Source of the DNA: an uncultured Methanobrevibacter sp.
Lineage (GTDB): Archaea > Methanobacteriota > Methanobacteria > Methanobacteriales > Methanobacteriaceae
Direction: 5' to 3'
Assembly: GCF_902774605.1 (NCBI RefSeq)
Contig: NZ_CACYJE010000006.1
Location: 3,818-67,817, forward strand
Length of the DNA stretch: 64,000 nucleotides
Position numbers and translations under genes: made by a program. Every line of letters begins with the position of its first letter. The first letter of the stretch is position 1. Shown here in pieces: positions 5,631 through 15,753 of this stretch. Below the pieces are notes generated by a model that saw only the letters and a program-made list of their open reading frames with translations, searched no databases and had not been told where the DNA came from.

Positions 5631-8273
5631 TCACTTGAAAATGCACATTGTTTCATCCTTTTTCATGTCATGATAGAATTCCGCCTTATCCTCCTTGAAG
5701 TCGATGACCTGAACCATATCATAAATTTCCTCGGCCAAATCGGGATTAATATCCCTCAGCATATTAGGATACTCATAAATCATGTCCCTGTTAAACTCTA
5801 TCTTCTTGTCGTTTTCAAACAGTGCCCCGTAATAGATTTCCGCTTCCACCAGATCCTGGAACATATGGCTTCCAAAGGACAACTCAGGCATATAGCCGAC
5901 TTCACTGTATGCCTCCTCAAGGATTGCGGTGAAATGGCTGATGTCAGCAAACACCACTGGTATGCCCAATTCCGGGGAGGAGGTTCCTATCCTACCCGGA
6001 ACAATGAGAATGGATGTCCTGCCATTGTCCCTGCAGTATGCGTTCACGTCACTGATTACCCTTGAAAGCGAGCTTTTCCCAGCATACGGGTACTCATAGT
6101 ACCTGTGAGGGTCAACATAACAGATTGTGTCAATCCGGTCTTTCCGGGACATTCCCATTGATGAGTCCTTGATGTGGAAGAACACGTTTGCATCCTCAGG
6201 CATTTCAATATCCTCATCGTTGAGGGAAACCTGAAGCGGTCGGCATTGAAGGAGGTTGATGTTGAATGAATTGTCCTCACCGACATTTACAGTGTATTCA
6301 ATGTCGACCGGGTAATCATAGGCGGTTTGAAGAGTGTTTAAAATATTCTTCATCACACCAATGAACTCCTTATTCCTCACCATGCCCTCACAGTTGACGA
6401 ACACTATCTCCCTTGACTGTCCACGGTCACGGAACATTCTTTCGGCTTCACGGTCATGCTCTATCAATACCCTTTTGGCATGCCTTGGAATCACCTCCAA
6501 TCCCTCATCGACAGGAACGTCATGAAGGGAAATGTTTTTAAGGTCAATGACATCAAGGTAATGCTGGGAATACCTATGCTTCTCCTTGATGTCCTTGGTT
6601 AACGTGACTTCGGGCTTGTCGAGATTGATTATTCTCGGATAGTCCTTCTTGGTCCGGTCCACAGCCTTGGTGCCGAGACCCATCACCAGCCTCAGCATCC
6701 CCTTGCTGTTGTCCATATCAGGCAATGGGGAGTAGGGACTGTAGGAAAATCCGACGCCAGCGGCGGTCGGGAAGAAATAATCATCACAATAGGAGCCTGA
6801 AACCCTCTGAACCAGCAATGCCATCTGCTCATCAGTATCATCCAATCCATTTATCTTACGGTACTCCAGTGCGGAAATGTTCATGGTGCTTGAATATACT
6901 ATCTTGACTGCTTCCTCAAAAGCCTCGAGGCGTTCTTCAAGGCTTCCCCTGTTTACGCAGAACACTGACTCGTACTTCCCTGCGAACGCGTTGCCGTAAC
7001 CGTCCTCAAGAAAACTGCTTGACCTTACGATGATAGGGTTTTGGCCGAAGTAATCCAGTATCTGAATGAAGCCCTTTTTAATCTCATCGGAGAAAACCCC
7101 TTCCTTCAGGGCTTTCTCCAGTTTCGCACCGTACTCATAATACCCTTCCTTGGTTCTCTGATTCACCCTCAAGTCCCAAAGGTCATTTGATACAATGTAA
7201 GTGTAAAACAGGTCAGACCCTATGTAGAATGAATCATCCGGTTCGAAAACCTCCCTGTAGATTTCTGGACTGTTCTTTTCAATGATTTTCCTTGCAAGAA
7301 GCATTCCGCAGGTCTTACCCCCGACCAGTCCGCTTCCCACGCGACGGTCATAGATTGTGAGGTAATCCTCGAAAGTGAAGTATTCCTTGATTTTGGAAAG
7401 CATGCGCTCATCCTTGGTCATCATGAGCTCGCAGATCTTATCGCACTCATCATCAATATCCTTGCCCTCAGCATACTCCCTCCTGACCTGTAGCATGTAG
7501 CGCTCCCAACTGTCGAGTGTCTGGCCGTTCTGGTAGATGTCTGAGTTTATTGTCTTGTAGTAGCGACTCAGATCCTGACCATCCTGCAGAACCTTAACAG
7601 AACCTGTGAGGATGTTGAACTTATGACCCAGAAACATTGTCTGGGAGTATCGGTTCCAAACCTTCAATGGCGAGAAGTAAATCTCCTCAGGAGAGTTTGA
7701 GTACACGTTCAGGAACAATTGCGTGGTCTCCCTGATTTTTGCTATGGCATCATAGGAGTGCCTGCCCCTTATTATCGGGAAATAGGCAATAGTGTCCAAT
7801 TGGAAGAGGAAGGGGCATGTTACCTTGAAGAAGTTGCCCATCATCAAATCAGTTGACCACACCGCCTGCAGATCGCTTAGACAGTCAAAGACATAAAACG
7901 CGTCACGACCCTCCTTTTCAATTATCCTGTGCACTTCCAGGGTGAATGTCTCGAACTGGTTGTATGGATTGACCTTATATATCTTAATCCCGTCACGCTG
8001 TATCATGCAGAACTCATTGTCCTGATTGTTTTCCTCTAGCTCGAGCAACAGATAATCCTCATCAGTCATCTCTATCAACGGTTCATGATTGGCGAACCTG
8101 ATATAGATCAGGTTCCTATTGTCCTTTTTTGCCTGCTTAACGTATGGGTCGACAAAGTAGGAGAACTCATTGAGATTAGTGACATTCCACACTACATTAT
8201 CCCCTAAACGAATATTGTCCAAAGCCGCATCAAGCCCTGGAATTCCTGATTTAGCCCTTTCAAACGCTGCCAT
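5631..8273 (-). CDS. PEP/pyruvate-binding (PPDK_N ATP-grasp) domain protein with degenerate KaiC/RecA-like N-terminus
   Basis: IIVRSSSFLEDGYGNAFAGKYES, MALLVQR, GLGTKAVD, DIEYT, LLQCRP (PPDK_N motifs). N-terminal KSGIPGLD. No C-terminal PEP-binding TIM barrel. Confidence 0.8.
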   Translation of the reverse strand: MAAFERAKSGIPGLDAALDNIRLGDNVVWNVTNLNEFSYFVDPYVKQAKKDNRNLIYIRFANHEPLIEMTDEDYLLLELEENNQDNEFCMIQRDGIKIYKVNPYNQFETFTLEVHRIIEKEGRDAFYVFDCLSDLQAVWSTDLMMGNFFKVTCPFLFQLDTIAYFPIIRGRHSYDAIAKIRETTQLFLNVYSNSPEEIYFSPLKVWNRYSQTMFLGHKFNILTGSVKVLQDGQDLSRYYKTINSDIYQNGQTLDSWERYMLQVRREYAEGKDIDDECDKICELMMTKDERMLSKIKEYFTFEDYLTIYDRRVGSGLVGGKTCGMLLARKIIEKNSPEIYREVFEPDDSFYIGSDLFYTYIVSNDLWDLRVNQRTKEGYYEYGAKLEKALKEGVFSDEIKKGFIQILDYFGQNPIIVRSSSFLEDGYGNAFAGKYESVFCVNRGSLEERLEAFEEAVKIVYSSTMNISALEYRKINGLDDTDEQMALLVQRVSGSYCDDYFFPTAAGVGFSYSPYSPLPDMDNSKGMLRLVMGLGTKAVDRTKKDYPRIINLDKPEVTLTKDIKEKHRYSQHYLDVIDLKNISLHDVPVDEGLEVIPRHAKRVLIEHDREAERMFRDRGQSREIVFVNCEGMVRNKEFIGVMKNILNTLQTAYDYPVDIEYTVNVGEDNSFNINLLQCRPLQVSLNDEDIEMPEDANVFFHIKDSSMGMSRKDRIDTICYVDPHRYYEYPYAGKSSLSRVISDVNAYCRDNGRTSILIVPGRIGTSSPELGIPVVFADISHFTAILEEAYSEVGYMPELSFGSHMFQDLVEAEIYYGALFENDKKIEFNRDMIYEYPNMLRDINPDLAEEIYDMVQVIDFKEDKAEFYHDMKKDETMCIFK

Positions 8274-8304: not shown

Positions 8305-9792
8305 CTAGTACTGTGTACTCACCATCGGCACGCCAGTCAGCTGTGAAGCCTCCATGGTCAATGATACAAGGTCCTGACGCTCAAGATTTTCAATATCGGT
8401 GTTGCCTGCCTGCTGGGTCAGAGAGGTTACTTCCTGAGTCATTGCCTCAATATAATTGGCGACCTGCTGTCCTTTCCTGATCGGGTCAAGTCTTCTTCTA
8501 AGCACCTTGTCCTGTGTTGCGATTCCTTTCGGACAGATTCCTTCAGAACATGACTGGCAAACCTTGCATCCAATGGATATCAATGCAGAAGTGGCGACAT
8601 AAACCGCATCAGCACCCAGTGCAATGGCCTTAGCCACATCTGCACCGGAGCGAATGCCACCTGCAGCCACGAGACTGACCTCGCTTCTCAGGCTAATCTC
8701 TTTTAGAGCATCATCCGCTCTTACTATTGCCTCTATTGTTGGAATGCCCGCGTGTTCTGTGACAACCTCAGGTCCTGCACCTGTACCTCCCTGCATACCG
8801 TCAACAACTATAATGTCTGCACCGGCCTTTGCGGCGATTTTAACATCCTGCTCCACTCTGCCGGATGCGAACTTAACTATGATTGGGATTTTCCAGTCGG
8901 TGATTTCCCTCAACTGGTCTATTTTCATGCCCAAATCCTCAGGCCCCACAATGTCCATGTGCCTTGCCGGGCTCAATGCGGAGGTTCCCTCAGGGATGTT
9001 GCGCACTCGTGCAACTTCAGCAGTCACCTTGTGTGCGAGCAAATGTCCGCCCATACCTGATTTTGCACCCTGACCAATCTTGATTTCCACCGCTTCAGCA
9101 TTGTTTAGGTACTCTGCGGAAACCCCAAATCTTCCAGAGGCATACTGTGCAATCAATTTATCTGCGTAATGCCTTTCTTCGGGAAGCATTCCTCCTTCAC
9201 CGGTGTTTGTGATTGTGCCTGCCTTGCTGCTTCCAATAGCCAATGCCATTTTAGCCTCCTTGCTCAGTGCACCAAAAGACATTGCCCCGATCATTATTGG
9301 AGTGTTGATTTCAATCGGGTTTTCAGCGAACCTGTCGCCGAGAACGACTGATGTCTTGCAGGTTTCACGATAGGAGTCTATTGGAGGTCTTGAGACTTGT
9401 GCCGGAAGCAGGCTCAAGTCGTCGAATGTCGGTATTTTCCTGGTAAGTCCGCAACCCCTGACCTTGTAGGAGCCGGATTGGCTTTTTCGCTTGATTTCAA
9501 CCATTGTTGAATTTGACCAGATTCCCCTTCCCTCATCGGCAAGAGGCCTTACATATATTGCATGGGTAGGACACATTTCCTCACATATCTTACATCCCAC
9601 ACAATTCTCCTGATGAATTGGCAACGGCTCGTCATTAATCACCTCGTAAACCCCATGAGGACAGTTTGAATAGCAGCTGTAACAGTTCTTACATGCAGCC
9701 CTTTTGGGATTGTCGCATAGATACCAGCAGCATCCTGGCCGATCATTGCTCTGCTTGCATATCTCTATTTTACGCTCAACTGTAAATGACAT
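8305..9792 (-). CDS. gltB2: Glutamate synthase FMN-binding subunit (GltB domain 2) with N-terminal 2x[4Fe-4S]
   Basis: GAMSFGALS, NTGEGG, QYASGRFGV, EIKIGQGAKSGMGGHL, DGMQGGTGA, CKVCQSCSEGICPKGIATQD; ferredoxin CxxCxxCxxxCP x2. Confidence 0.93.
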   Translation of the reverse strand: MSFTVERKIEICKQSNDRPGCCWYLCDNPKRAACKNCYSCYSNCPHGVYEVINDEPLPIHQENCVGCKICEEMCPTHAIYVRPLADEGRGIWSNSTMVEIKRKSQSGSYKVRGCGLTRKIPTFDDLSLLPAQVSRPPIDSYRETCKTSVVLGDRFAENPIEINTPIMIGAMSFGALSKEAKMALAIGSSKAGTITNTGEGGMLPEERHYADKLIAQYASGRFGVSAEYLNNAEAVEIKIGQGAKSGMGGHLLAHKVTAEVARVRNIPEGTSALSPARHMDIVGPEDLGMKIDQLREITDWKIPIIVKFASGRVEQDVKIAAKAGADIIVVDGMQGGTGAGPEVVTEHAGIPTIEAIVRADDALKEISLRSEVSLVAAGGIRSGADVAKAIALGADAVYVATSALISIGCKVCQSCSEGICPKGIATQDKVLRRRLDPIRKGQQVANYIEAMTQEVTSLTQQAGNTDIENLERQDLVSLTMEASQLTGVPMVSTQY

Positions 9793-9794
9793 TC

Positions 9795-10856
9795 TTAATC
9801 AACCTCCCCTAATGCTTTGAAAACCGGACAGACTGAATATTTTGTCCCTCCGGACTTGATGATTTCATCTATGCCTCTTGTAATCTTGGCATATGGCTTC
9901 CATGCCAGGTGATCCTGCTTGTCAACAACCATCGCATCAGTAACTATCTTATTTGTAAGGAGATAGTCAAGCAGAGTGGTGACGATAGAGCCGTCCTGAC
10001 CCTGAGTATGCTTCAATGATTTGACAGTCAATACTTGTTTGAAATCACCAATCGCTTTTGAGTTATCGTTTCTTAACTCCTCCGGCACAAATGTTCTTGG
10101 GCAAACCGCAAAGCATGCATGACAATCCTGTGGGCACTCCCCTTTCATGATTGGCTTGGTGTCCTCAATCCTTATGAGATTGTCTGGACATGCATATTCA
10201 CATGCTCCGCACAATACGCATGCTCCAACATCAATGACATTGGATTTCAAGTCTGTGAAATCGGATTGTGACACTTCAAATGCTATGGAATCATCAGTTT
10301 TTTCCCTTTGATACAGTACCGGCCTGGCAAGGAACTCTCTTCTTTCAACAAACTCCATGTTCCTTTCGATTTTACTTTCAGCAATCCTGTTCAACAAGTC
10401 AAATTGATATTCATTGAATGACTTGGCTTCAATGAATTCCTGCTCGATTGCCCCATTGATGATTTCCTCTCCTTTTTCGCTTCTCACAATCACTGTTGAC
10501 CATCCGTCCTCTGAACCGATGGAGCCTATTGATATGTCAGATGTTTCAGAAGTCAGTTCAACACATATGTTGCAGTTTTTCCTGATTATCCTTTTGGCAA
10601 CGGATAATGGAATTTTTAATGTTTCATTACTCTTCAATAATAGGAATACGAATCCTTTCTCGATTCTGAATTTCTCAATGTCATCCATTTTCAAGTCGTA
10701 TTCTTTTAGAAGGTTTGTAAAGTACTTGTATGAGAAATTCTCCATGCAGAACAATCCCAGTTTGACTTCAATGGGACTGTCAGTATAATATTGTAGTTTG
10801 GATGCCGCCATAATCTCGCATGGTGTTCCAACCATTGCAATTCTGCGTTCACTCAT
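9795..10856 (-). CDS. FrhB/FdhB-family F420-binding subunit, circularly permuted; putative electron-input subunit of glutamate synthase
   Basis: Starts with the FrhB C-domain (IAMVGTPCEI, LGLFCMENF), has a central ferredoxin, and ends with the FrhB N-domain (GQDGSIVTTLL, GGTKYS). Start at 10856 follows a GGTGA SD. Confidence 0.85.
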   Translation of the reverse strand: MSERRIAMVGTPCEIMAASKLQYYTDSPIEVKLGLFCMENFSYKYFTNLLKEYDLKMDDIEKFRIEKGFVFLLLKSNETLKIPLSVAKRIIRKNCNICVELTSETSDISIGSIGSEDGWSTVIVRSEKGEEIINGAIEQEFIEAKSFNEYQFDLLNRIAESKIERNMEFVERREFLARPVLYQREKTDDSIAFEVSQSDFTDLKSNVIDVGACVLCGACEYACPDNLIRIEDTKPIMKGECPQDCHACFAVCPRTFVPEELRNDNSKAIGDFKQVLTVKSLKHTQGQDGSIVTTLLDYLLTNKIVTDAMVVDKQDHLAWKPYAKITRGIDEIIKSGGTKYSVCPVFKALGEVD

Positions 10857-10877
10857 ATTTTTCACCATCCCATTTTA

Positions 10878-11534
10878 TTACATATTAACTATTTTTTTAA
10901 AATTTGAATAATCGTCATCAGACAGGTTGAAACCGTATTCAGTGAGGATTTCCCTTAAATCATCAATATCTTCACTGGTGGCTTCATCCATTACCGCATT
11001 TTTACCCAGGCTTTTCACTTCTCCAAGAACAAATATTGTTCCCCTCATGATTGATTCGCCGACATCATCGGTGACATCCCCTAATATGATCAATCTGCCG
11101 CCCATCATGAGCAGTCCAGTCATGTAGCCGCTGTTCCCACCTATTATTACGGTTCCTCCTTTCATGATTTCCCCTGTTCTTGAACCAGTGTTGCCTTTAA
11201 CTATCACGGTTCCACCGTAGATTCCCTGTCCTGCACCGTCTCCGGCAGTGCCCTCAATTATGAGTTCGCCTTCAGTCATGTTATCCCCAGCGAACCATCC
11301 TGCATTCCCCTTGATATGTATTTTCGGCCCGTTGACCATTGTTCCAACGAAATATCCTGCAGAACCGTTGATTATGATGTCAACTTCCCCAGTCAATCCT
11401 GCGCAGATGTTGTGTTCGGATTCGGGATTGTCGATGATGAGACAATCATGTTCTTTTGCCTGCCTCTTTATTGTGCGGTTCAGTTCCTTCACGTCCATGC
11501 CTTTAGCGTCAATAACATATTCATCCATAGTCAA
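10878..11534 (-). CDS. gltB3: Glutamate synthase GXGXG domain protein (GltB domain 3)
   Basis: Repeated GxAGxxxGxxMxGG beta-helix motifs. Confidence 0.88.
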   Translation of the reverse strand: MTMDEYVIDAKGMDVKELNRTIKRQAKEHDCLIIDNPESEHNICAGLTGEVDIIINGSAGYFVGTMVNGPKIHIKGNAGWFAGDNMTEGELIIEGTAGDGAGQGIYGGTVIVKGNTGSRTGEIMKGGTVIIGGNSGYMTGLLMMGGRLIILGDVTDDVGESIMRGTIFVLGEVKSLGKNAVMDEATSEDIDDLREILTEYGFNLSDDDYSNFKKIVNM

Positions 11535-11542
11535 ACCTCCTC

Positions 11543-12460
11543 CTAGATTGTATATGCCCTTGTCTCTCCCGGTGCAATCTGCTCGATTTCATCTGAATCG
11601 GTGACATCATGCAATGCCATCTCCTCTGATGCCACTGCAAATATCTCATCTGTTTCAACCATCACCCCCGGTCGCAGGCCCAGCTTGTCCTTTGCAATGC
11701 CTATGCCGTTAGGGGTTCCAACCAGTATTGAGAACGGACCATCCAGGTCTATGACAGCCTGGTCAAGTGCCTCCTCGAGCTTGTAGCCCTGGTTCAGCTT
11801 ATCAGCCATGTAGTGGACTATGCATTCAGTGTCGTTGTATGATTCGAAAGTGTGTCCCTTGCGCTCAAGAGGGTCTCTTATTTTCCAGTAGTTGGTGATT
11901 TGACCATTATGCACCACTGTAATGTCCGGTATGATGTAGCTTTGGTATGGATGTGCATGGTAGCGGTCAACACCGCTTTCTGTTGCAAATCGAGTGTGTC
12001 CTATCCCATGAGTCCCCATGCGATTGTAGACGTCGAACCTTTCGGCAATGTCTTTTACCTTGCCGACATCCTTTATCATCTCGAATGAATGTGAACCGTT
12101 GATAACCCTGACATCATCCAGCTCGTCGATTTCCCTTATGCAGGGTTTTAAAAGCGAGTACTCATCCAGTGCTATCTTGCACTTGTACACGTCTGAGTCC
12201 CCAACTGACCTGATCAGTTCCTCTTCAAATATTGGAGTGATTTGACTCAGCAATGATTTTAAATTATCCAGGGTGCCTTTTCTCCTGTTCACTTGAATGT
12301 TTAGTTGATAATAATTTTCTGGGAAATCCAAACTACCGTAAAGAGCATATCCTGCTGAATCCGGACCCCTGTGCTGGAGGGATTCAAGCATTGATGTCAA
12401 TGCCTCCCCAATCGGATGGGATTTCCTGTCCTTGTATATTACACCTGCTATTCCGCACAT
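11543..12460 (-). CDS. gltB1: Class II glutamine amidotransferase (GltB domain 1)
   Basis: MCGIAG N-terminal Cys (start 12460), LQHRGPDSAG, GHTRFAT, HNGQITN, NDTECI. Confidence 0.9.
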   Translation of the reverse strand: MCGIAGVIYKDRKSHPIGEALTSMLESLQHRGPDSAGYALYGSLDFPENYYQLNIQVNRRKGTLDNLKSLLSQITPIFEEELIRSVGDSDVYKCKIALDEYSLLKPCIREIDELDDVRVINGSHSFEMIKDVGKVKDIAERFDVYNRMGTHGIGHTRFATESGVDRYHAHPYQSYIIPDITVVHNGQITNYWKIRDPLERKGHTFESYNDTECIVHYMADKLNQGYKLEEALDQAVIDLDGPFSILVGTPNGIGIAKDKLGLRPGVMVETDEIFAVASEEMALHDVTDSDEIEQIAPGETRAYTI

Positions 12461-12552: not shown

Positions 12553-12642
12553 TTACCATATGCCTTTAAAATAATCGTAATAATCGTGAAATTTTATCAT
12601 ATGCCCATATACTCTAAAATTATCATATGCCTTAAAATAATT
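12553..12642. promoter_or_regulatory. Three direct repeats TTAYCATATGCC upstream of the glt operon
   Basis: CATATG cores at 12557, 12598 and 12624; copies 1 and 3 continue with CCT(T)TAAAATAAT. Confidence 0.45.
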
Positions 12643-12769: not shown

Positions 12770-14104
12770 TTAAACGTTCAGGTACTCATCCCTCTCATAA
12801 TCGAAGACCTGTATCCTGTAAGCATCCCATTCAGCCCTCTTGATATTGTAGAACTGATTGAACACTTTTTCTCCAAGAGCGTTCTTGACAACTTCATCCT
12901 CTTCAAGGGCATGGTATGCTTCCCATAAACTGGTTGGAAGGCTGCTGATTCCTTTCTCTGCAATCTCATCCTCAGTGTATGCGAAGAGGTTCTCCTCAGT
13001 CGGTTCACCCGGATCAATCTTATTTTCCATGCCGTCAAGACCGGCCTCAAGCAATACTGCAAATGCAAGGTACGGGTTGCATGACGGGTCAGCTGACCTG
13101 CACTCAATTCTAGTTCCTAATCCACGGGATGCCGGAATCCTCAGCAATGTTGAGCGGTTCTTGAAACCGTATGCAATGTAGCATGGTGCCTCATAACCAG
13201 GCACTAGACGCTTGTAGGAGTTGACTGTTGGAGATAATATTGATGATAAAGCCGGTGCGTGTTTCAATAATCCTCCTATGAAGTACAGTGCATCCTGTGA
13301 TATCTGGGTTTCAGTGTCAGGGTCGTAGAAGATGTTTTCACCATCCTTGAATAGGCTTTGGTTACAGTGCATGCCGCTTCCGTTGATTCCTAGGAATGGC
13401 TTTGGCATGAATGTTGCTTTAAATCCTAACTTATTTACGAGTGCCTTTACTGCTTCCTTGAATGTTATTACTGCATCAGCTGTTTTTAAAGCATCAGCGT
13501 ACTTGAAGTCAACCTCATGCTGTCCTGCTGCCACTTCATGGTGGCTCACTTCAACATTGAAGTCTAGTTTCTCGAGTCCAAGAACTATTTCTCTCCTGAT
13601 GTCTGTACCCTGGTCTAATGGTTCAACGTCAAAGTACTCAGCCTCATCAGCAGGGACGTAGTTTCCCTCATCATCTTCTTTAATGATGAAGAATTCAGGT
13701 TCGGGACCCATGTTGAATTGGTATCCTCTTTTCTCTGCCAGCTGCAATGATTTTTTAAGCACTCCTCTTGGGTCTCCGTCATATGGTTTTCCATCGGTTG
13801 TGAAAATGTCGCATATGAACCTGCTGGTTCCTTTCACTTCCGGTCTCCATGGTATTGTTGAGAATGTGTTGATGTCAGGTTTTGCCAGTAGGTCACTGTC
13901 GTTGATTGATGCCAGTCCTGCCACTGATGATCCGTCGAACAGCAATCCGTCTTTCACTATGTCTTCCACATCATCTGCTTTTTTCAGCGGCACTGCCATG
14001 CTTTTAGGCAATCCGTGTATGTCTGAAAATTCCAGTTTAAGGAATTTTATATCGTTTACTTCTATTGTCTTTATGATTTGGTCTAATGTTTTATCCTTTG
14101 ACAT
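12770..14104 (-). CDS. glnA: Glutamine synthetase type I
   Basis: [70 protein letters not shown]; start MSKDK at 14104. Confidence 0.97.
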
Positions 14105-14200
14105 GTTTTCACATCTTTGAGTATACTTGTCCAATTTTTGAGGGTATCATGGAAAAAATGGAAAACCATTTTTATTGACTATGCAACCTTGGGCACATAG

Positions 14201-14222
14201 TCGGAAGGAAACTTCCTTCCGA
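14201..14222. promoter_or_regulatory. NrpR-type operator: palindrome with two overlapping GGAA-N6-TTCC boxes
   Basis: TCGGAAGGAA-AC-TTCCTTCCGA; lies just downstream of the minus-strand BRE/TATA of glnA. Confidence 0.8.
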
Positions 14223-14748: not shown

Positions 14749-15753
14749 CTATTTACCATTTTTGAGTTTGTTTAATTCTTCAGTTAACCTGCTTATTTCC
14801 TGATCTTTTTCTTCAGTTAACCTAGACATTTCCTGATAGTCTTCAGTTATCCTAGATATTTCCCTGTCTTTTTCTTCAGTTAACCTAGATATTTCTTGAT
14901 CTTTTTCTTCAGTTATCCTAGATATTTCCTGGTCTTTTGCATATATTTCTCTTTCATATGAATTCATTCTATCAACTTCCTTGCTTGTGAAATTAATTGT
15001 AATCAAACACAACAGCTCTTTGGCCTTATTTAAATCATCCTGAAAGTGATATAATATCATTTTCTTCAGCACTTGGTGCAAATCAATTTTTAAGTCAGGA
15101 TCAATCTTTGGAAACCTGCTGAAAAGAATAACGATTTTTTCCATTATCTCTTTTGCATCGGTTTTCACAAAGACCGCAATATATGCGAAATTCAAAACCT
15201 CATCTACAGTGAAATCTCGTCTAGTTTCAACTATATCTGTTAATATATTTAACCTTTTTGAGATTTTTTCAGAGGTCACAATGATGTAATGAACCCTCAA
15301 CACATGATTGAAGACCTCATAATCAATTACATCACTTCCAGGGTCTTCGTTGGTTATTATAATAGGCACTGTGGGAAGATTTGTCTCATGAGTCTTAGAT
15401 ATTACATAAAAGAATATTGTTTCGATTTTTAAATCATCTGGAAGCTTGGACTGGTGTTCGGCATCAATTGCGGATTTGACTTTAATGATTCCACCATCGG
15501 GAAGCACCACAGCTCCATGGTCCATTTCCAGATTGCGACCGTCTTCGGTGACTACATTAGTGTCTAGTTTTTTCAGATACTTGCCTGGAAAGCCAAATGT
15601 GGAATGTGAGGGTTTGGCCCATCCTGAAACTGTCAAGCGAAATGATGAGTCTTTCGGATGATGATTGGGTCCTCTCATTATCTGGTCAATTAGCGCCTTT
15701 AGATTTTCCTGGTTTCCGGTTGTCTTCTCATGAATCATTTCCATTTTTTTCAT
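14749..15753 (-). CDS. Rpn/YhgA-like PD-(D/E)xK-fold protein with C-terminal 11-aa repeats (putative)
   Basis: LEMD...IDAEHQS resembles the D...ExQ motif, followed by VPIIIT; helical C-half; tail of EEKDQEISRLT repeats. Confidence 0.55.
   Translation of the reverse strand: MKKMEMIHEKTTGNQENLKALIDQIMRGPNHHPKDSSFRLTVSGWAKPSHSTFGFPGKYLKKLDTNVVTEDGRNLEMDHGAVVLPDGGIIKVKSAIDAEHQSKLPDDLKIETIFFYVISKTHETNLPTVPIIITNEDPGSDVIDYEVFNHVLRVHYIIVTSEKISKRLNILTDIVETRRDFTVDEVLNFAYIAVFVKTDAKEIMEKIVILFSRFPKIDPDLKIDLHQVLKKMILYHFQDDLNKAKELLCLITINFTSKEVDRMNSYEREIYAKDQEISRITEEKDQEISRLTEEKDREISRITEDYQEMSRLTEEKDQEISRLTEELNKLKNGK
14777..14938 (-). repeat. Five in-frame tandem repeats (4x33 nt + 1x30 nt) encoding EEKDQEISRLT variants
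   Basis: TCTTCAGTTAWCCTAGATATTTCCTGRTCTTTT-like units read directly. Confidence 0.9.

Follow-up and report, generated by a model that had tools for sequence, protein, structure and literature searches.

A naturally circularly permuted FrhB-family protein, the putative F420H2-oxidising subunit of glutamate synthase in Methanobrevibacter

A gene located on the minus strand at positions 9795..10856 of a 64,000-nt stretch of DNA from an uncultured Methanobrevibacter sp. (contig NZ_CACYJE010000006.1; the whole stretch is hereafter called the window) encodes the putative F420H2-oxidising subunit of glutamate synthase (GOGAT), known as FGltS(II)-alpha or 'subunit 4'. Its product was confirmed to have the FrhB fold in a naturally occurring circular permutation, in which the C-terminal domain of FrhB (C-domain) comes first, a 2x[4Fe-4S] ferredoxin domain (Fer) follows and the N-terminal domain of FrhB (N-domain) comes last. 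The permutation is a clean one, with a cofactor domain used as the new linker. We give a probability of about 0.75 to the favoured reading as a whole, namely that the protein is a circularly permuted FrhB-family F420 module with flavin adenine dinucleotide (FAD) and [4Fe-4S] clusters that serves GOGAT. It is through glutamate synthase that ammonia nitrogen enters the biomass of methanogens.

Domain order and opening of the chain

The gene, which is supported by the list of open reading frames (ORFs), the order of the Pfam domains and the AlphaFold (AF2) model described below, encodes 353 amino acids followed by the stop codon at 9795-9797. Residue numbers are those of the 357-aa ORF counted from the ATG at 10868 (minus strand ORF 9795-10868). 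The true start is probably the ATG at 10856, because this codon (10856-10854) sits 5 nt downstream of a GGTGA sequence (10866-10862) and most orthologs begin with MSE(H/R)(R/K)IAMVGTPC. This start agrees with the coordinates proposed in an earlier note on this DNA, which had been made from the sequence alone.

A Pfam search of the ORF returned the domains in the order C, Fer, N (all coordinates on the minus strand). The FrhB_FdhB_C domain (PF04432) was found at residues 8-152 (10413..10847) with an E-value of 3.9e-44 and 150.6 bits, against a gathering score of 23.3, and it holds C17, C41, C99 and C102, the IEKG turn and the DISIGSIGS loop. It is followed by a stretch (10239..10412) that comprises, according to BLASTP and the AF2 model, the old long C-terminal helix of the FrhB core and a new linker of ~25-30 residues to the ferredoxin domain. 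The Fer4 dicluster of the 2x[4Fe-4S] ferredoxin domain was located at residues 211-259 (10092..10238), with eight Cys at positions 217, 220, 223, 227, 245, 249, 252 and 256. The FrhB_FdhB_N domain (PF04422) stands last, at residues 288-353 (9810..10007; E 7.9e-17; 61.6 bits against a gathering score of 22), and carries the QDG start of the FAD-pyrophosphate helix and the GTKY loop. NCBIfam FrhB models were also split into two matches, with profile positions 92-279 falling at the N-terminus of the protein, and the best NCBIfam and PDB ferredoxin matches of the ferredoxin domain were to the C-terminal ferredoxin part of FrhG. Internal controls in the same genome were one FrhB of 285 aa with the order N-C, adjoining FrhG, and two FdhB proteins with the order N-C-Fer, adjoining the genes for molybdopterin subunits. 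The Pfam hits thus bear out the order C, 2x[4Fe-4S], N read in the earlier note, and the order N before C, canonical for the FrhB family, was not seen. That note also took ferredoxin, N, C to be the canonical order, which holds for FpoF, FqoF and Fsr-N but not for FrhB, which has no ferredoxin domain, or for FdhB, in which this domain is C-terminal.

In BLASTP comparisons with the genome's own FrhB, residues 9-184 aligned with FrhB 98-281 (33% identity), and residues 273-356 aligned with FrhB 5-90 (36% identity). When the PDB was searched with phmmer, 8riu_B was the best solved relative: residues 203-355 matched 8riu_B 8-169, with Fer and N in a single stretch, and residues 6-174 matched 8riu_B 175-346. 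Since both halves match 8riu_B, the entire protein maps onto a Fer-N-C protein once it is rotated, and since the two stretches leave a gap of 5 residues, the chain cut falls in that gap. In the genome's own FrhB, 27 residues intervene between the Tyr of GTKY and the Cys of VGTPC; the permutant has 25, of which 13 follow the Tyr and 12 precede the Cys. The chain has been opened within the segment connecting the N- and C-domains, with almost no residues lost, and the cut at the N/C junction claimed in the note is therefore supported by BLASTP, by phmmer and by the residue count. Residues ~176-202 constitute the new linker, which connects the former C-terminal helix with the ferredoxin domain. 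No chain colinear with the permuted protein over its full length was found in the PDB by phmmer, Foldseek or VIA.

Cofactor sites and predicted fold

In the FrhB of M. marburgensis (Mills 2013, PMC3591093), the cluster is bound by Cys104/134/192/195, FAD is contacted by the start of helix 26-64 and by Lys75-Tyr76, and the F420 site comprises the 163-IGKGK turn and S209-V210. The counterparts of the cluster ligands in the permuted protein are C17/C41/C99/C102, with the spacing PC-X23-C-X57-C-X2-C and aligned to the FrhB Cys by BLASTP. The FAD site corresponds to Q291-D292-G293 at the helix start and K343-Y344 in the GTKY loop, and the F420 site to the I69-E-K-G72 turn and the S116-I117 loop. 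Across 36 permuted sequences the core-cluster Cys are invariant or nearly so, Q291, D292 and G293 are invariant and Y344 is nearly invariant; the I-x-K-G turn and the S-[IV] loop are also present and conserved in these sequences. The eight ferredoxin Cys are invariant or nearly so in the permuted family.

The AF2 model was built from the alignment of the 36 permuted sequences and reached a predicted local distance difference test score (pLDDT) of 92.2 and a predicted template modelling score (pTM) of 0.91, the pLDDT of a single-sequence model being only 35. Helices were predicted at 149-175, 188-196 and 200-208. Using VIA, residues 1-182 of the model were superposed on FrhB 92-282 (9r51_B; Z 14.5; root-mean-square deviation (rmsd) 2.1 A), residues 1-263 on FdhB 84-368 (8rvu_E; Z 13.7; 221 residues; rmsd 4.0 A), with the ferredoxin domain included, and residues 194-272 on the ferredoxin part of FrhG (4omf_G; Z 4.2). 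Plant HCAR (5dqr) was a fold match as well (Z 9.9). Foldseek and VIA align sequentially, and cover either the C-domain only or the C-domain together with the ferredoxin domain. The superposition on FdhB indicates that the part running from the C-domain to the ferredoxin domain is arranged as in FdhB; the part running from the ferredoxin to the N-domain is colinear with Fer-N-C proteins. Because Frh and Fsr have the ferredoxin module at one and the same place on the FrhB core (preprint 10.1101/2022.04.07.487323), the ferredoxin domain is able to bridge the old termini. The three-dimensional FrhB module is expected to be unaltered by the permutation. The Pfam, BLASTP and phmmer results, together with the superposition of the AF2 model on the C-part of FrhB, confirm the natural circular permutant that the earlier note had proposed.

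Occurrence of the gene and of its operon

The distribution of the permuted form, which had been suggested as a check, was determined in a sample of 301 Methanobacteria genomes, the criterion being that a single open frame gives a colinear match at full length with E <= 1e-83. The full-length colinear permuted protein was the best match in 261/301 genomes, as a single intact frame of 351-378 aa, and single-contig assemblies are among the genomes with the intact gene. This distribution, together with the conservation of the gene, refutes the explanation that the swapped order is an artefact due to misassembly, to a frameshifted tandem pair or to a decaying pseudogene; the cofactor ligands are invariant and the fold prediction is confident, and we consider the probability of an artefact practically negligible even with the one in-frame TAA seen in two Methanosphaera-like genomes and the split [C]+[FN] frames of a few long-read metagenome loci. 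The TAA-bearing copies, both in genus g8 (G108:C1:1599047-1600108 and G151:C74:5733-6797), may be pseudogenes or sequencing errors. The split frames (L130, L133 and L158) were rejected as real split forms, since their two parts lie in different frames with an overlap, as indel errors would produce.

In the window, the permuted gene lies between gltB3 (10878..11534, minus strand), which encodes the GXGXG-motif subunit (PF01493, E 1.6e-31), and gltB2 (8305..9792, minus strand), whose product has an N-terminal 2x[4Fe-4S] domain (Fer4 at 31-80) and the flavin mononucleotide (FMN) domain Glu_synthase (PF01645, E 1.4e-130). The class-II glutamine amidotransferase subunit (Pfam GATase_6/7) is encoded by gltB1 (11543..12460, minus strand), the true start of which is probably the ATG at 12460, behind GGAGG, giving MCGIAG with the Cys as first mature residue. 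The ATG of gltB2 is placed 2 nt beyond the stop codon of the permuted gene, and a GGAGGT lies inside the 3' end of the permuted gene, which is translationally coupled to gltB2. No GltD-type partner was found, as PF14691 is absent from the genome, which is 96% complete and contains a single true Glu_synthase gene.

Related loci were obtained by a search with a 6-sequence alignment, the matches of which were in Methanobacteriaceae only. With X standing for the permuted gene, the order gltB1-gltB3-X-gltB2 was found in 80/80 genome loci as far as the contigs reach (Methanobrevibacter, Methanosphaera and Methanobacterium) and also in three loci (L087-L089) that belong to further families or orders within the class, which makes 83 loci in total. 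Methanobacteria lacking the permuted gene were tested for operon-type GltB2 (~437 bits), and it was also absent from 12/12 of them; ten of these 12 genomes hold only a Glu_synthase paralog of ~465 aa (313-336 bits), and the other two hold none. Examples of this PF01645 paralog are G030:C3:313877-314809, G064:C81:12230-13192 and G077:C6:44110-45075.

A role in glutamate synthesis

Delivery of F420H2 electrons to GltB2, i.e. an F420-dependent GOGAT as advanced in the earlier note, is probably the function of the permuted subunit, and it is the best supported of the functions considered in view of the conserved cofactor motifs, the invariant operon position, the lack of a GltD-type partner and the co-absence with operon-type GltB2. 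FrhG and FrhB are present in the genome, and therefore F420 is in use. The potential of F420 is close to that of NADPH, the donor of bacterial GOGAT. A value of ~-350 mV is quoted for F420 in the preprint mentioned above (10.1101/2022.04.07.487323). The domain order, the junction, the fold, the conserved ligands and the place in the operon are shown by the analysis; we infer the formation of a four-subunit complex, the role of F420 as donor and the path through the clusters. In this path, F420H2 would give a hydride to the FAD held between the N- and C-domains, and electrons would exit singly via the FrhB cluster (C17/C41/C99/C102) towards the internal ferredoxin domain with its two clusters. 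They would then enter the N-terminal 2x[4Fe-4S] domain of GltB2 and reach FMN through a Cys-rich cluster site near the C-terminus of GltB2 (C-x2-C-x2-C-x4-C-P), and FMN would reduce 2-iminoglutarate, which arises when 2-oxoglutarate combines with ammonia set free by GltB1.

Several points weigh against an F420-dependent GOGAT built around the permuted module. The literature searched yielded neither an assay nor a cofactor analysis nor a structure for the complex. The superpositions reach the C-domain and the ferredoxin domain only, the relative placement of the N-domain lying outside their cover. The co-absence of two genes of one operon is explicable by a single deletion, and in one genome that does carry the permuted gene (G121) operon-type GltB2 could not be clearly recognised. 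Two Methanobacteriaceae genera have the permuted gene apart from gltB1-B3-B2, next to an M42 peptidase gene (G051, L090, L091, L172 and L173). The IGKGK turn of the F420 site reads IEKGF, with K71-G72 kept and the second Lys missing, which is the sole motif loss. Finally, the FrhB fold by itself is no proof of F420 use, since PF04432 also matches Synechococcus and Bacteroides, and plant HCAR shares the fold. To our knowledge, neither these two bacteria nor the plant with HCAR use F420.

These last points bear on whether the FrhB-fold subunit uses F420 at all. It might instead work with reduced ferredoxin or another protein donor, taking up electrons by way of its Fe-S clusters and FAD in an HCAR-like manner, which would make the enzyme in effect a ferredoxin-dependent GOGAT; the fold match to HCAR, the FrhB-family domains of organisms not known to have F420 and the partial conservation of IGKGK all favour this, and GltB2's own N-terminal ferredoxin domain could itself take electrons directly. 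We consider it unlikely, given that every other FrhB motif of the FAD and F420 sites is retained, that the nearest solved relatives (8riu_B, 8rja_E, Fsr and FrhB) are all F420 enzymes (E 1e-33 to 1e-49), that the host methanogen possesses Frh and that a flavin is required only with a two-electron donor.

The unlinked copies bear on a different question, i.e. whether the permuted protein is dedicated to GOGAT. In the complete genome G051 the permuted gene (C1:879989-881056) is ~200 kb from the operon (C1:1083591-1084580), and in G051 and G152, which belong to one of the two genera, the operon consists of gltB1-gltB3-gltB2 without the permuted gene. Such copies, and the recurrence of this architecture next to OFOR, PreA-like, Mtd and cytochrome genes in other loci (see below), would favour a general F420-linked module that has other acceptors and stands in the operon incidentally, with GOGAT reduced by other means. 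This explanation is improbable, more so than the use of a donor other than F420: the position between gltB3 and gltB2 is constant in the 83 loci and in several families, the gene is coupled in translation to gltB2, it is absent together with operon-type GltB2 in 12/12 genomes, and no other reductase partner was found in the genome, which lacks PF14691. If F420H2 is the donor of GOGAT, as favoured here, nitrogen assimilation would draw directly on the methanogenic F420 pool, with a bearing on the physiology of rumen and gut Methanobrevibacter and on inhibitor design.

Origin and other uses of the permuted module

In order to place the permuted family, relatives were ranked in a library of 1.8 billion proteins and the best 150 representatives were taken. 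Among these, 123 have the order Fer-N-C and 15 are permuted, with a few N-C or N-C-Fer proteins. PDB matches to Fer-N-C proteins reached an E-value of 1.9e-48, versus 2.3e-14 for FdhB. Judged by these comparisons, the nearest relatives of the permuted family are the Fer-N-C proteins. Two close canonical relatives carry further domains: P0129 (517 aa) is an FrhG-FrhB fusion (Oxidored_q6 + Fer4 + FrhB_N + FrhB_C), and P0128 (473 aa) has an IclR-type helix-turn-helix N-terminal to Fer-N-C.

Trees were obtained from the concatenated N- and C-domains, with 37 permuted rows. Multiple origins, as in a free quick tree that showed three permuted clades, were not supported, since a search under constraint gave a single clade in a better tree: the tree holding all 37 permuted rows together was 31.8 log-likelihood units better than the free quick tree, with a p-value of 0.69 in the approximately unbiased (AU) test. 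The phylogeny is thus compatible with a single origin of the permuted family, and the permutation most likely arose once. The data are also compatible with a route in which a Fer-N-C gene was duplicated in tandem and the resulting pair was fused and trimmed at either end. Tandem pairs of Fer-N-C genes (~500 aa and then ~375 aa), separated by 3-22 nt or with a slight overlap, were found in 9 metagenome loci (L123, L124, L128, L129, L131, L132, L137, L146 and L170), and therefore the precursor state of this route exists. These pairs are not linked to GOGAT genes, and the idea that they lie within GOGAT operons was dropped, as the adjoining gene encodes a polyferredoxin without a Glu_synthase domain according to Pfam.

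The metagenome scan revealed that permuted genes also occur outside GOGAT operons. In three loci (L104:1588-4656, L113:470-4469 and L117:5998-10058), the permuted gene is directly upstream of a complete 2-oxoacid:ferredoxin oxidoreductase (OFOR) operon, and overlaps it in two; these operons comprise gamma, then a small 2x[4Fe-4S] frame that resembles delta, then alpha and beta. The neighbourhood suggests that an F420-linked OFOR may be encoded there. In L092:5953-8251 the permuted gene is 8 nt ahead of a DHO_dh + Fer4_21 (PreA-like) gene, with a divergent carbon-nitrogen hydrolase gene upstream. A 487-aa permuted form with a C-terminal extension adjoins mtd, the gene of F420-dependent methylene-tetrahydromethanopterin dehydrogenase, in L101:5923-8204, and in L125:6136-8663 the permuted gene adjoins a multihaem cytochrome gene. 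The non-GOGAT permuted genes branch outside the Methanobacteria clade, which has a support of 100%. No account of this wider use of the permuted module was found in the literature searched.

These loci raise the possibility that the C-Fer-N module is a portable F420-coupling cassette of single origin, not specific to GOGAT, that has been joined to several ferredoxin-type enzymes in archaea. This is a tentative proposal, to which we give rather less than an even chance. If it is true, undescribed F420-linked oxidoreductases of the 2-oxoacid and the dihydropyrimidine/dihydroorotate types are predicted, and the gene in the window would be the best-conserved and most tractable representative for docking tests.

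Surroundings of the operon

The operon genes are packed on a single strand in the order glnA, gltB1, gltB3, permuted gene, gltB2 and a PPDK_N-like gene. The glutamine synthetase gene glnA (12770-14134, minus strand; PF00120 and PF03951) is directly upstream of the GOGAT genes, and this synteny is present in at least 50 loci. Downstream of gltB2 and on the same strand, a gene for a PPDK_N-domain protein of 880 aa (5631-8273, minus strand) occupies a position that is kept in ~49/80 related genome loci.

The spacer between glnA and gltB1 contains three copies of GGCATATG(A/G)TAA (12553..12631, minus strand), against 0.01 matches expected, and no copy was found elsewhere in the window. This 12-mer is also present upstream of gltB1 in ~21 related Methanobrevibacter loci, and nowhere else in each locus of ~13 kb. 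The repeats are candidate cis-elements, either operator or promoter, for the gltB operon. Upstream of glnA, two overlapping GGAA-N6-TTCC boxes were seen at 14203-14220, the window containing 5 such boxes versus 1.6 expected. An ORF of 334 aa (14749-15753, minus strand) ends in a C-terminal run of near-identical 'EEKDQEISRLTEE'-type repeats.

Comparison with known systems

The gene, the F420 hypothesis and the swapped alignment are already known and were in print in 2011-2013, so that the discovery presented in the earlier note had been published before (PMC3087415, PMC3448663 and the legend of Fig. 9 in PMC3591093). Kaster 2011 (PMC3087415) listed MTBMA_c06440/MTH193 as an F420-dependent glutamate synthase whose activity 'remains to be proven'. 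Susanti and Mukhopadhyay 2012 (PMC3448663) named the enzyme FGltS(II) and called its alpha subunit an FdhB homolog. According to the legend of Fig. 9 in Mills 2013 (PMC3591093), the 83 C-terminal residues of the subunit and its 182 N-terminal ones align to the N- and C-termini of FrhB, respectively. Papers of 2022, 2024 and 2026 continue to describe the enzyme as 'putative', and in the literature searched no paper was found that joins 'circular permutation' to FrhB. The gene in the window is an ortholog of the described protein, not a discovery; what is added here is the systematic confirmation, the compatibility with a single origin, the identification of Fer-N-C proteins as nearest relatives and the wider distribution of the module, with its OFOR and PreA-like neighbours.

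The closest described counterpart is MTBMA_c06440/MTH193 (ADL58239, 'subunit 4') of Methanothermobacter, which has the same operon position and differs by species-level divergence only. The proteins of L087-L089, which by inference belong to the same order as Methanothermobacter, show ~45% identity along their whole length, and the order of the four genes is kept in these loci. As in FGltS(II)-alpha, the domains of the window's protein follow each other as C-Fer-N, with ~180 N-terminal residues equivalent to the C-part of FrhB and ~83 C-terminal residues equivalent to its N-part, and the gene is accompanied by those of a split GOGAT (amidotransferase, GXGXG and FMN subunits). Against the label of FdhB homolog used by Susanti and Mukhopadhyay, the nearest sequence relatives found here are Fer-N-C proteins.

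Fer-N-C modules, i.e. 8RIU_B (zeta subunit of F420-reducing CODH), the Fwd subunit 8RJA_E, Fsr-N (7NP8/7NPA) and FpoF/FqoF, include the best PDB matches (E 1.9e-48 to 1.9e-35) and have the cluster ligands and FAD motifs in common with the permuted protein, Fer and N forming one continuous alignment. They differ from the permutant, which is rotated to C-Fer-N and has a different partner enzyme; it is not of the FpoF/FqoF/Fsr-N type, since its Fer-N part is colinear with them but the C-domain precedes it. FrhB (3ZFS/4OMF, 6QGR and 9R51) shares the core fold over 182 residues, with the Z-score and rmsd given above and 33-36% identity in both halves, but it has the order N-C and, unlike the permutant, no ferredoxin domain of its own, as FrhG supplies one. 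In FdhB (8RVU_E and 7BKB_E), the C-domain and then the ferredoxin domain are colinear with the permutant, whereas the sequence match is much weaker and the N-domain is N-terminal; the permutant, with a C-terminal N-domain and no FdhA neighbour, is not of this type.

The amidotransferase, FMN and GXGXG functions are common to the enzyme encoded in the window and to bacterial NADPH-GOGAT (GltB + GltD). In contrast to the bacterial enzyme, these functions are here split over three polypeptides, GltD was not found, and the electron-input module is of an unrelated family.

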